A stretch of DNA of 36,746 nt from an uncultured Candidatus Saccharibacteria bacterium (GCA_964350985.1 CAYGLK010000001.1:52272-89017), one strand, 5' to 3'; shown: positions 17,112 to 20,314, numbered from the stretch's first letter. Program-made: numbers and translations. Notes: generated by a model not told the origin, from the letters alone.

Positions 17112-17310
17112 ACAGTAGAAAATTATGAGATGTATTTAATGGATCCGAACGATGGTTATAAAAAGTTTGAAGAGGAATTAGAGACGGTTATTGTTAAGGT
17201 TGAGTAAATTTTAATTTTGTGCACTGGAATGCAAGAAGTCAGAACTGCTGTTATAGAAAGTGACTAAAATTTCTTGCCGAGTTTTGTAAAAAATGAAGAG
17301 GTCTTTGTAT

Positions 17311-17356
17311 AAAAGAAAAGCCGTCCTCCAAGTGGCTTTTCCAGTTGGTGGACGGC
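17311..17356 (-). terminator. Intrinsic terminator of the alpha-CTD-like gene
   Basis: gccgtcc-tccaa...ttggt-ggacggc stem with a U-rich tract on the minus strand. Confidence 0.7.
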
Positions 17357-17362
17357 AAGGCG

Positions 17363-17893
17363 TCATGTTTTGGCGAAATTGCGAAGCGGTTGCATGCCCA
17401 TCTGGCTCAGAACGCAATCGATGTACGAAAGCGTCTTGTTGCCGACGTGGCAGTATTGCTGACCAGCAATCTCTGAGCGGGTCAGAGAAACGAGTTCACC
17501 GATGCTTCTCACTTCGAGCGTAATGCATGCACGCGGAAGTTCTCTCCTTGCGAACGAGCCAAAACCATCGTAGTCGAACGTGTCGAGGATGTCGGCAATC
17601 CGTGCATTTTCGCCCATATCCATCAGGTCGGCGACCGTCATCCTGTCGTCTTTCGGTCGACGCAAATCGGCACGAAGCGCGGATTCTGTCATGTCCCACA
17701 CACGCTTCGGTTGGTCTTCGAACACGACCCAGAAAATCTCGTCTCCGTCACCATCTTGCGATGTGGCATCGTTGGCAAGAGCGTAGTCGATGACTTGCTC
17801 GGTGAAAATGAGATTGTAGGGTTTGTCAGTCTCTTCCAGAACAACAACCTTTTGCACAGGGCAGCCAGGTTGGGGTGGAAAATCAAGGTACAT
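17363..17893 (-). CDS. Hypothetical protein with C-terminal RNA polymerase alpha-CTD-like domain
   Basis: RELPRACITLEVRSIGELVSLTRSEI...VGNKTLSYIDCVLSQMGM resembles the alpha-CTD pattern (R..NCL...I.TIGDLV..TE.EL....N.G.KSL.EI...L...GL). AAGGAG SD before ATG 17893; own promoter and terminator. Confidence 0.7.
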   Translation of the reverse strand: MYLDFPPQPGCPVQKVVVLEETDKPYNLIFTEQVIDYALANDATSQDGDGDEIFWVVFEDQPKRVWDMTESALRADLRRPKDDRMTVADLMDMGENARIADILDTFDYDGFGSFARRELPRACITLEVRSIGELVSLTRSEIAGQQYCHVGNKTLSYIDCVLSQMGMQPLRNFAKT

Positions 17894-17925
17894 CTCAGTC
17901 TCCTTCGTTTTTGAGTGCAAACAAA

Positions 17926-17954
17926 AGAATACACTATAAATAGTGTATTGTCAA
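17926..17954 (-). promoter_or_regulatory. Sigma70 promoter with palindromic operator-like spacer
   Basis: TTGACA-17 bp-TATTCT; aatacactat-aa-atagtgtatt at 17928-17949. Confidence 0.75.
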
Positions 17955-17959
17955 GGTTT

Positions 17960-18535
17960 GTGCGCCGGGAGGGAATTTCTCGGCTTACTTGGACAAATGA
18001 GTATCTAAATTAAATTTTATTTTCATTTATGATACGAATGTAGTTCAAGAATGTTTACATACAGCCGCAGTACACCTTTTGGATTTTCTTTTCGTAAACT
18101 CAAGAAAATGCTCAAAAGCTTTTCGAATCCCTACGCACGTGACGTTTAGTCACGTGCTCCCGGCGCACATAAGAAAAAGTCGGGATTCGTCCTGACGGTC
18201 ACCAAACTCAATTATTTTGCTCCGCTCATAATTGAGCAGGTGCCGCGGGACACGGCTCGCTGGCCCTAAAAGGGGACTCCAGCTCCGCCGTTCGAATCCC
18301 TCCCGGCGCTAACAAATACAACAAAACCAAAGCATAAGCTTTGGTTTTGGTATTTGGTGCGCCGGGAGGGAATTTCTTTCTCTACGAGAACGGTACACCT
18401 TTCGTATCGTACTTCGCTAGCGCTCGTGCGATAAACTCAAGGTCTTCGAATCCCTCACGCAAGGCATGCAGATGCCTTGCTCCGGCGCACGAATAAAAAT
18501 AGCACTCCCGTAAAGGAGTGCTCATTTTTATATTC
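17960..18535 (-). repeat. Array of structured elements bounded by direct and inverted copies of the tRNA-Tyr 3' end
   Basis: Direct copies at 17960-17974 and 18357-18371; inverted copies at 18122-18168, 18290-18309 and 18445-18490; shared internal boxes. Confidence 0.88.
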
Positions 18536-18536
18536 G

Positions 18537-18619
18537 TGCGCCGGGAGGGATTCGAACCTTCGTAGACATAAGTCAGGAGATTTACAGTCTCCCCTCGTTG
18601 ACCGCTTGAGTACCGACGC
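18537..18619 (-). tRNA. tRNA-Tyr(GUA)
   Basis: GCGTCGG/CCGGCGC acceptor, GGAGA-CTGTAAA-TCTCC anticodon arm, long variable arm, GAAGG-TTCGAAT-CCCTC T arm with one mismatch. Confidence 0.95.
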
Positions 18620-18688
18620 AGTGCCATACAAATTACCACAGACGGTGGGTTTTAGAAAGATGTCTTGCGTGAGATAATATAAGTACTT

Positions 18689-20314
18689 ATGTGGAAAGCC
18701 TTCTTTATCTTTTTCCTGTTTGCTGTTACTCCAATGAATATCTATGCTGCCGGATTGGTTCCTTGCGGCGGTCCTGGTGAAGCTGATTGTCAAAGTTGTC
18801 ACGTTGTTCAGTTGGCTCAAAGCGGTATTGATAGATTGGTAGGGGTTTTGACTATTATCGTCATTCTAATACTGATAGTCTCTGGTATCCGCCTAGTTAC
18901 TTCAGCTGGGGACGCTAGCGCTGTCTCTGCGTCAAAGAAGATGATTACGAATGCACTAATTGGCTACGTGATTGTCTTGGTTGGATGGCTTCTAATAGAC
19001 CTTGGCATGAAGACTTTAGTAAATGAGACCGCTTATGGTGTATGGAATGAAATACAGTGTGTGGATCAACCAATTGCTTTGGTCCTACCACCTTTACCAG
19101 ACAGACCACCAAGAGTTAATCCAGGGGGACCAAATGGCACACCAGGCGTTGCTGGTATTCCTGTCTCTGGTACGCCTAGCACTAGCTGCACCAACTGCGG
19201 AAGTACACCAACTAACTGGATTCCGTCTCAAACTGTTCCTAATGGTGGTGGTCCAGGAATTGATACCACTGTCGGATCACTCTGTCAGACTCAACTAGCA
19301 CCAGACGGTCAGTGCGTCATTTCAAATGATCTCTTACCTGAACTCAATCTTTTTCACAACACTGTGATGTCGGAAAATATTAGCTCTTGGTGGGTGACAG
19401 AAGCATGGCCTCCGACGGGTTGGTCTCCTACCAACCCTACAGGTATTCATAGTCACTCATGTTTCTCTAACGGAACCTGTGTTAAATATTACTTTGTCGC
19501 TGGCGGTATTGCTGGAGTAGATGCTATTAATAGTATTATTGGTTTTGCGCACCAATACGGGCTTTTGGCTATTTATGAAGTGAAAAACCAAGCAGAGAAA
19601 GACTTCTTGGTTCGTGGTGGTGTTTCAGCTAACTCAATCCAAATAACCGGAACTGACAGACCTCACTTTACTATATATATTCTAGAACCAGCTGGTTTGG
19701 CTGGACCAGGAACGACACCAAACTCGGGGCTGCTAGGCTACTGCGGGGAATATTACAATGGGGTAGACAGAGCAGTGCCAACAGACCCTGCTTTTACTGC
19801 CTATGGTCTTACAAAAAAAGAAATCTCACTCGATGAAGCAGTCAATTTCTTTCAAGTCGCTATCACGGAAAATAGAGTTTTACCAGGACCTCATCTAGCG
19901 CCTGAAAGCGATGGTCGTTATCTCGCAATTCCGATTACTGTATTGGATTCCAGAAGTAGTGCAGATATCAGATTATTTGATGTCCAAGGTTCTCCTTCAA
20001 AAACTGCAAATATCACAGCTAGCTTGAGTCCGTGTCCAGGGGATTTTAGAAATGCGGCTGCATTTAACAGTAACAACACTGATGATTATTTAAAAAGCTT
20101 CTGTCGCTCTAATGAAGGAATTAGCGGTGCGTTGAAATTGGGTACTGATGAATTTTCTTGTAGTGTTCCAGTCGGAGAGGTGATGTATCTAAATGTTACA
20201 AATCATCGATTTGATAATGGTTGGCCAGAACCAACTTGTCGTTTTGAGTTTAATGGTAATTGTGGACTAAGTTTTAATCCTCTACCATATCCTGATGGAA
20301 TTTATTTTGAGTAA
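18689..20314 (+). CDS. CPR-type (TrbC/VirB2-like) pilin with long Cys-rich extracellular extension including a degenerate Hedgehog/LAS-like domain
   Basis: Signal peptide, GLVPCG...C..C, two TMs around SAGD....ASKKMITNALIG; VTEAWPP...HSCFSNGTCVK. Confidence 0.75.
   Translation: MWKAFFIFFLFAVTPMNIYAAGLVPCGGPGEADCQSCHVVQLAQSGIDRLVGVLTIIVILILIVSGIRLVTSAGDASAVSASKKMITNALIGYVIVLVGWLLIDLGMKTLVNETAYGVWNEIQCVDQPIALVLPPLPDRPPRVNPGGPNGTPGVAGIPVSGTPSTSCTNCGSTPTNWIPSQTVPNGGGPGIDTTVGSLCQTQLAPDGQCVISNDLLPELNLFHNTVMSENISSWWVTEAWPPTGWSPTNPTGIHSHSCFSNGTCVKYYFVAGGIAGVDAINSIIGFAHQYGLLAIYEVKNQAEKDFLVRGGVSANSIQITGTDRPHFTIYILEPAGLAGPGTTPNSGLLGYCGEYYNGVDRAVPTDPAFTAYGLTKKEISLDEAVNFFQVAITENRVLPGPHLAPESDGRYLAIPITVLDSRSSADIRLFDVQGSPSKTANITASLSPCPGDFRNAAAFNSNNTDDYLKSFCRSNEGISGALKLGTDEFSCSVPVGEVMYLNVTNHRFDNGWPEPTCRFEFNGNCGLSFNPLPYPDGIYFE

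Follow-up and report, generated by a model that had tools for sequence, protein, structure and literature searches.

Tandem gene-less modules behind a Saccharibacteria tRNA-Tyr gene belong to a large family of structured repeats linked to tRNA genes

The tRNA-linked repeats (TLRs) of Escherichia coli have been known since 1978 and have no explanation. They comprise 22 sequences at ten loci, with one to five copies per locus, and the 3'-terminal 18–19 bp of a TLR are identical to the upstream tRNA's or rRNA's 3' end (PMC8144298). They are described as having no known function, with the exception of rrA, rrB and rrF of the rrn operons, which have a dual-terminator arrangement and are read-through transcripts that bind Hfq and CsrA (PMC8144298). 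Partial tRNA copies are also reported to separate the successive insertions of tycheposons beside a full tRNA gene (10.1101/2020.12.28.424599). Here we describe positions 17960–18619 of a window of 36,746 nucleotides (nt; the whole stretch of DNA that was analysed) from an uncultured Candidatus Saccharibacteria bacterium (GCA_964350985.1, CAYGLK010000001.1:52272-89017), whose genome of 0.97 Mb has 40% G+C and lies on four contigs. Behind a tRNA-Tyr gene, this stretch carries three gene-less modules in tandem, which belong to a large family of structured, tRNA-linked repeats found in Saccharibacteria-type (Patescibacteria) genomes. The ends of the modules are re-tailored to the local tRNA, their fold is selected on the tRNA-sense strand, and they are present or absent both between species and within one population. 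A search of literature listings on Saccharibacteria mobile elements, tRNA integration, Nanosynbacter small RNAs and tRNA-linked repeats found no description of this family.

Read on the tRNA strand, a unit opens with a terminator-like hairpin, which is followed by a copy of the tRNA 3' part in inverted orientation (A), by a conserved core of approximately 100 nt that exists in two types, and by a second copy of that part in direct orientation (S). A extends from the T-loop to the discriminator base and the C that follows it, often with a few bases of the tRNA trailer, and S begins in the T-loop and stops at the discriminator plus C. Each S copy is followed by a terminator-like hairpin of its own, as are many units across the genome. 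In the window, tRNA-Tyr (anticodon GTA) occupies 18536–18619 on the minus strand (ARAGORN; Rfam tRNA, 47.6 bits), and is followed on that strand, in the assembly, by hairpin 1, unit 1, hairpin 2, unit 2, unit 3, a promoter-like site and an open reading frame (ORF), in this order. The three units measure 130–210 nt and are without genes. The final 15 nt of tRNA-Tyr, which served as the reference copy S0 (18536–18550, minus strand), recur exactly at 18357–18371 (S1) and 17960–17974 (S3), and in inverted form with 2 mismatches at 18297–18311. Thus four matches with at most 2 mismatches were observed where 0.02 were expected, and none of 100 shuffles reached four.

Hairpin 1 (18501–18522), with an A-run before it and a T-run after it, stands directly behind tRNA-Tyr. 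Unit 1 (18357–18491, minus strand) is a type-1 module and one seed of the type-1 covariance model R2, which it matches with 102.9 bits. Its inverted copy is divided by an inserted hairpin (18460–18479) into an acceptor piece (18480–18490) and a T-stem/T-loop piece (18445–18459), and its direct copy, S1, reads ACCA at the end. Hairpin 2 (18322–18349), also terminator-like and with a 12-bp stem, lies ahead of unit 2 (18169–18321, minus strand), a type-2 module (model R1, 47.7 bits, E 3.5e-8) that has an uninterrupted, perfect inverted copy of 20 nt (18290–18309) and a direct copy shortened to the T-loop plus 3 nt. Unit 3 (17960–18169, minus strand) is again of type 1, with an R2 match of 59.8 bits (E 1.5e-12) for 18038–18169; its inverted copy (18122–18168) is split by an inserted hairpin as in unit 1, it ends in S3, and it holds an AT-rich insert of roughly 75 nt within its UGUAA hairpin. 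An earlier note on this DNA, in which unit 1 was called B and unit 3 was called A, had listed these sense and antisense copies and hairpins, and all of them are where it placed them, including the interrupted inverted copies at 18445–18490 and 18122–18168. The ordered scaffold it described for the two units is also real, since both match the same covariance model, and its two sequence motifs correspond to the reverse complement of the type-1 core. Its unit borders, by contrast, had to be redrawn: what it took for a GC-rich multi-hairpin in the middle of the array is a module of the second core type, and the inverted copy extends into the tRNA trailer.

In the predicted folds, pairing between A and S closes the unit as a perfect copy of the acceptor/T-arm helix of the tRNA, in which the core occupies the place of the T-loop and a small hairpin that of the D and anticodon arms. 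Compared with shuffled sequences, the folds have z values of -4.98 for unit 1, -4.24 for unit 2 and -5.93 for unit 3. The inserted hairpins of units 1 and 3 differ in sequence and both pair in these folds, which agrees with the earlier proposal that structure is kept while sequence changes. In addition, A extends into the complement of the real tRNA trailer, so that the end of the tRNA (S0), hairpin 1 and the A copy of unit 1 form one long palindrome, with arms at 18482–18499 and 18527–18544 that are 94% complementary.

Covariation was analysed on the core helices with models R1 (type 2, including the tRNA-Asp module as a truncated row) and R2 (type 1), which were built from the copies of this genome and aligned to those of its relatives. 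In these alignments, which are fitted to the models and therefore favour structure somewhat, 98.1% of 754 cells of type 2 are paired and 19 of 22 pairs changed on both sides; none of 500 shuffles reached the observed value, and controls in which the pairing was slid gave 27–38%. For type 1, the same analysis yielded 95.8% of 661 cells paired, with changes on both sides of 15 of 16 pairs and 33–58% for slid controls. On the tRNA-sense strand, G-U pairs are more frequent than A-C pairs (18:5 in type 2 and 53:19 in type 1), and the loop of one type-1 hairpin is GTA in all 43 copies, indicating that the fold is selected on the tRNA-sense strand. Such selection fits RNA and single-stranded DNA alike. 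Rfam includes an RtT model, and gave no match to it here at E<=10; at the gathering threshold only the two tRNAs pass, and at E<=10 only tRNA and chance matches appear, so that the comparison with Rfam suggested in the earlier note returned nothing credible beyond tRNAs.

BLAST and profile searches of the genome identified 53 module matches, 17 of type 1 and 36 of type 2. A same-strand tRNA gene lies upstream within 400 nt in 35 of the 53 cases and within 1 kb in 39; for the latter distance, 1000 random placements gave 0.9 on average and never more than 5. Seen from the tRNA side, 23 of the 38 tRNA genes have a module behind them within 400 nt and 25 within 1 kb, that is, two thirds of the tRNA genes of this 0.97-Mb genome, and the orientation of the module is always that of the tRNA. 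This genome-wide linkage bears out the idea of a tRNA-anchored family that accumulates in tandem. Behind 11 tRNAs, the last 16 nt of the gene itself (with at most 1 mismatch) recur 139–290 nt downstream; direct copies reach 28 nt elsewhere in the genome, as against 15 nt here, and the A copies fit the local tRNA at each locus. Thus, the termini do switch to match whichever tRNA is adjacent, as the earlier note had anticipated. Indeed, nearly identical type-1 cores stand behind tRNA-Tyr and tRNA-Asn with different ends. A second architecture, consisting of hairpin, A and core without a distal S, occurs at six tRNAs (Trp, Val-tac, Ile-tat, Lys-ttt, Ala and Asp), where A complements the 3' strand of the genuine acceptor together with 4–8 bases of trailer. 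We note that all 38 tRNA genes have a C after the discriminator, that only 7 encode the full CCA, and that 21 read CA, in many cases with further A residues behind it.

The family is widespread among relatives. Among 61 genomes of a draw of relatives, this genome counted, type 2 was present in 55 (0–33 copies per genome), including 35 of 36 congeners and 19 of 24 genomes from other families of the order, and type 1 was present in 52 (0–45 copies each). Both types are absent from six genomes that are at least 92% complete (G026, G038, G043, G044, G046 and G052). A phylum-wide draw gave matches in 6 of 150 other genomes. In distant families, all seven loci (from five of these six genomes) have a same-strand tRNA 25–35 nt upstream, and in 30 loci of relatives, of roughly 3 kb each, 33 of 45 module matches have a same-strand tRNA upstream within the locus.

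Occupancy at tRNA-Tyr varies between species. We collected 29 congeneric tRNA-Tyr loci, 28 of which have at least 400 nt of downstream sequence; 13 of these 28 carry a same-strand module of type 1 or 2 within 900 nt, 14 have no module, and one has a module seen by eye alone. A follows species-specific variants in the T arm of the resident tRNA-Tyr at five of the six variant loci that were read, including a G-to-A change in the T-loop. Variation is also seen within one population, when contigs of four DNA runs of a single study, with X1 as the probable source run, are compared with the window. In run X4, a short contig of low depth (188 nt, depth 3.4) joins 17959 to 18536 and represents the exact empty-site allele, with 15 nt that fit both sides of the join and 0 mismatches in 74 + 114 nt of flank. 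It does not stem from the paralogous tRNA-Tyr locus, because the flank there differs. The comparison of empty and filled sites that the earlier note had called for can thus be made at this very locus. A head-to-tail junction from 17955 to 17217, a step back of 739 nt, was found on similarly short contigs of low depth in X1 (depth 10.4) and X3 (depth 4.1), with 34 nt on its shorter side; it falls at S-like ends and means that the ORF unit next to the array exists as a circle or as a tandem duplicate. The remaining X1 joints derive from paralogous loci.

As to what the units are, we favour, with tentative confidence that stays below even, a reading in which they are non-autonomous insertion modules with a folded attachment structure. 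Units would enter and leave by exchange within the repeated segment from T-loop to 3' end, so that the tRNA would keep an intact 3' end and gain another terminator. Attachment would be through the A-core-S fold, which a putative host or external enzyme would read in single-stranded DNA, and by analogy with integron attC and the folded attP of CTX the fold may mimic a double-stranded target. Our preference is based on the identity that runs from T-loop to 3' end, the terminator that accompanies each S, the patchy occupancy, and the near-identical cores that stand behind different tRNAs with different ends; moreover, the best pairing partner of A is the genuine end of the tRNA, an arrangement that would do harm in an RNA. 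If the units are insertion sites, they would represent a new way to target tRNA genes without a dedicated integrase, and a route for gene flow in bacteria with tiny genomes.

Several observations weigh against insertion. Most units lack cargo, and the conserved unpaired bases and purine-rich loops look RNA-like. The six tRNAs without a distal S indicate that these copies are not simple duplicative insertions, and the empty allele and the junctions could stem from short repeats that slipped or underwent unequal exchange. By blastn, 17960–18536 has no match in phage and plasmid collections, and a scan of IMG/VR with one exact 17-base type-2 motif returned 2 contigs, neither of which has a module by nhmmer. 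Nor was a mobilising enzyme identified that follows the modules. In this genome there is no match to IS110, reverse transcriptase (RVT_1), rve, DDE_Tnp_1 or the TnpB zinc ribbon, and the recombinase families searched have no member in the window, which agrees with the earlier note's statement that it holds no integrase or transposase; all matches of the genome are on other contigs. These include one tyrosine recombinase, which is Xer-sized and the sole PF00589 match, and the genome has two large serine recombinases and one RAYT-like Y1 (HUH) protein of 220 residues (contig 3, 11756–12418, minus strand). The Xer-sized protein is found in 39 of 41 congeners, this genome counted, at about one per genome regardless of modules. 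As required mobilisers, serine recombinases fail in both directions, with seven in G026, which has no modules, and none in G009, G034, G021 and G011, which nonetheless have 10–19 type-2 and 8–45 type-1 matches. Likewise, Y1/RAYT proteins are present in the module-free G038, G043 and G046 and absent from the module-rich G010, G032, G006 and G020. We rejected both as required factors because their distribution departs from that of the modules, and with reverse transcriptase giving no match in the genome, the co-occurring recombinase, HUH nuclease or reverse transcriptase that the earlier note had proposed to look for was not found. The RAYT-like gene itself has similar GC-rich palindromes of approximately 40 nt on both sides, which are unrelated to the modules and for which BLAST finds no further copy in this genome.

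A close second, which we likewise hold to be less than an even bet, is that the modules are tRNA-linked small RNA genes that resemble TLRs. They would be transcribed by read-through, and the A/S helix would act as an acceptor/T-arm minihelix cut by tRNA-processing enzymes, with RNase P on the 5' side and RNase Z followed by CCA addition on the 3' side; cores would be protein-binding or sponge RNAs, and changes in copy number would reflect ordinary unequal exchange between repeats. The covarying fold with its many G-U pairs on the tRNA-sense strand and its invariant GTA loop is what one would expect in this case, as are the constant orientation, the RNA-like conserved loops and the ACCA at the end of S1, and the terminator-like hairpin behind many units recalls the dual-terminator rrA/rrB/rrF (PMC8144298). 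E. coli tyrT units share the A-core-S topology and the E. coli precedent is transcribed, and the absence of cargo from most units and of an enzyme that tracks the modules point the same way. However, variable occupancy among congeners, with zero to dozens of copies within the genus, is unlike a housekeeping RNA, and cleavage by RNase P and RNase Z would not call for ends identical to those of the adjacent tRNA, although that identity is maintained. In both the S-less architecture and the window, A finds its best pairing partner in the genuine 3' end and trailer of the tRNA, and in an RNA would compete with folding of the tRNA. Furthermore, the hairpins before units 1 and 2 resemble efficient terminators, no promoter-like site was seen before either unit, and a single weak one (9/12) lies within the insert of unit 3. 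Were the modules RNAs, they would constitute two abundant families absent from Rfam, with a built-in tRNA-like processing handle.

The insertion reading can be carried further, to a version that we consider speculative and unlikely. Here the modules would be self-tailoring attachment sites, in which the core and the inverted and direct target copies fold as single-stranded DNA, possibly arising after natural transformation, for example, so as to imitate the double-stranded 3' end of a tRNA gene, and recombine with that gene via a host enzyme, the inverted copy being regenerated from the target at each insertion. An integrase-less family of this kind could colonise almost any tRNA gene and seed cassette arrays, and the E. 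coli TLRs would be relics of the same process.

It is improbable that the units are functionless by-products of replication errors, generated by template switching at the terminator hairpin and the T-loop palindrome TTCGAA, with cores spread by gene conversion. Such an origin would suit the long, near-perfect palindrome of S0, hairpin and A that includes trailer bases, the way in which A mirrors the T-loop variant of the resident tRNA, the position of every junction at the T-loop palindrome, and the fact that no enzyme was found. Two cores of approximately 100 nt, however, are conserved across an order-level clade with compensatory changes and invariant unpaired bases, and all seven distant-family copies are still linked to a tRNA; neutral scars would decay rather than covary. 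Passive template switching may account for the perfect A, but not for the covarying cores. We give very little credence to a regulatory role, in which the module transcript or the inverted copy in cis would sequester the acceptor and T arm of pre-tRNA-Tyr and control its maturation: A is indeed complementary to the last 20 nt or so of the tRNA plus trailer, but about half of the congeneric tRNA-Tyr genes have no module, the tRNA folds before A is transcribed, and in units 1 and 3 A has its partner S within its own unit. Least credible of all is an assembly artefact, that is, an array that is a chimera of paralogous repeats: no single contig of X1 spans the whole array, and around 80 nt of unit 3 are common to two paralogous loci, behind tRNA-Asn and the second tRNA-Tyr, yet overlapping X1 pieces cover 17319–18096 and 18118–18653 with 0 differences, and the same architecture recurs behind 25 tRNAs of this genome and across dozens of others.

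Beyond the three units, a promoter-like site (TTGACA, 17 nt, TATTCT; 10/12) lies directly after S3 at 17926–17954 on the minus strand and overlaps a 10-bp palindrome. It precedes an ORF of 185 residues (17363–17920, minus strand) with no Pfam family, which forms a cassette-like unit whose far end carries S4, a degenerate copy of the tRNA 3' end (17219–17230, minus strand). The promoter-like TTGACAAT recurs after S copies and before small ORFs; in the window it is found at 17926–17959 on the minus strand, overlapping a 10–13-bp palindrome, and further copies follow the second tRNA-Tyr directly and, in triplicate, lie in the tRNA-Asn array (contig 1, about 173100–174940). The recurring site with its palindrome looks like a shared cassette promoter and operator. 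In the tRNA-Asn array, single-gene units sit between modules. A 115-nt unit behind tRNA-Asn (contig 1, about 174825–174940) ends in a 26-nt copy of the 3' part of tRNA-Asn, and its body resembles the insert of roughly 75 nt in unit 3, indicating that the insert is itself a recurring piece; it is also seen behind tRNA-Lys-ttt and beside tRNA-Gln-ctg.

The second tRNA-Tyr(GTA) gene of this genome (contig 1, 471364–471447) is 100% identical to that of the window over 118 nt, including 34 nt of leader (window 18536–18653, contig 1 471330–471447). The region downstream of it is a mosaic of the pieces found in the window, in a different order, so that each locus is a mosaic of the other. Among the 29 loci of relatives, 8 have tRNA-Trp at a distance of no more than about 1.5 kb from tRNA-Tyr; the second copy shares this arrangement, and the tRNA-Tyr of the window is therefore probably the secondary copy. 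Divergent from the latter, an ORF of 541 residues (18689–20314) has a weak, sub-threshold match to a family of type IV secretion pilins (18.7 bits versus a cut-off of 26.6).

The modules share traits with several described systems. REPINs, like other hairpin MITEs, are short non-coding hairpin repeats; REPINs are not known to be linked to tRNAs or to copy their target. The modules resemble them in being short, non-coding, hairpin-forming and strand-specific repeats in dozens of copies, in a genome that has a RAYT-like gene; unlike in a REPIN/RAYT system, this gene is flanked by unrelated palindromes and its distribution departs from that of the modules. Integron attC sites consist of imperfect inverted repeats, fold on one strand and lie between the cassettes of an array anchored at a primary site. 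Here too the units are separated by imperfect inverted repeats with a single-strand fold, through the A/S helix of the predicted folds, but there is no IntI next to the array (the sole PF00589 match being on another contig) and no attI/Pc, the module ends copy the anchor tRNA rather than an R-box, genes are absent from most units, and the ORF unit comes with a promoter-like site of its own. In the attP of CTX phage and in other elements that exploit Xer, a folded single strand imitates a double-stranded target, and the element has no integrase of its own. The modules likewise have two inverted pieces approximately 100 nt apart that form a stem, in an element without its own integrase, whereas their target would be the 3' ends of tRNAs of many sequences and not dif, and no phage genome is attached. 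With tycheposons and other tRNA-targeting elements (10.1101/2020.12.28.424599), they have in common partial tRNA copies between successive units beside a full tRNA gene, an identity that begins within the tRNA and continues to its 3' terminus (direct repeats S0, S1 and S3) and a heterogeneity that is highest next to the tRNA. Those elements, however, are kilobases long and have a tRNA-specific integrase, whereas the modules measure 130–210 nt and have no integrase, an inverted copy and a structured core.

The closest resemblance is to the TLRs. Like them, the modules stand directly behind the RNA gene on the same strand as tandem units (three here, one to five in E. coli), and the end of the unit is the 3' end of the upstream RNA, over 15 of 15 nt in S1 and S3. 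In the tyrT-tyrV region of E. coli K-12, where the repeats go by the name RttR/rtT, we counted six 19-nt copies of the tRNA's 3' end: one each in tyrT and tyrV, one between the two genes, and three at the ends of the 178-bp downstream units. Each of these 178-bp repeats (NC_000913 1286700–1287330) also contains an inverted 10-mer of the tRNA-Tyr 3' end roughly 100 nt before the direct copy, and hence shares the A-core-S topology; the predicted fold pairs the two, although not better than shuffles do (z -0.92). We found no mention of this inverted 10-mer in the available part of the account of E. coli TLRs (PMC8144298). The earlier note had called the element undescribed, but its design is not new in kind, because TLRs are tandem units that end in an 18–19 bp copy of the tRNA 3' end (PMC8144298) and the tyrT units hold an inverted piece as well. 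There is no detectable homology between the two, with at most 5.3 bits for R1 and 6 bits for R2 on the K-12 tyrT locus, and we therefore class the modules as analogous to the TLRs rather than as belonging to them. They further differ from TLRs in their two covarying cores, their longer A/S helix and hairpin insert, their hundreds of copies across an order, their presence/absence polymorphism and their association with gene cassettes. The design of the tRNA-linked repeat is met here as a large, well-folded family of fast turnover, with hundreds of copies in 60 genomes, whose covariation, empty and filled alleles and re-tailored ends amount to sufficient natural variation for testing the nature of such repeats.

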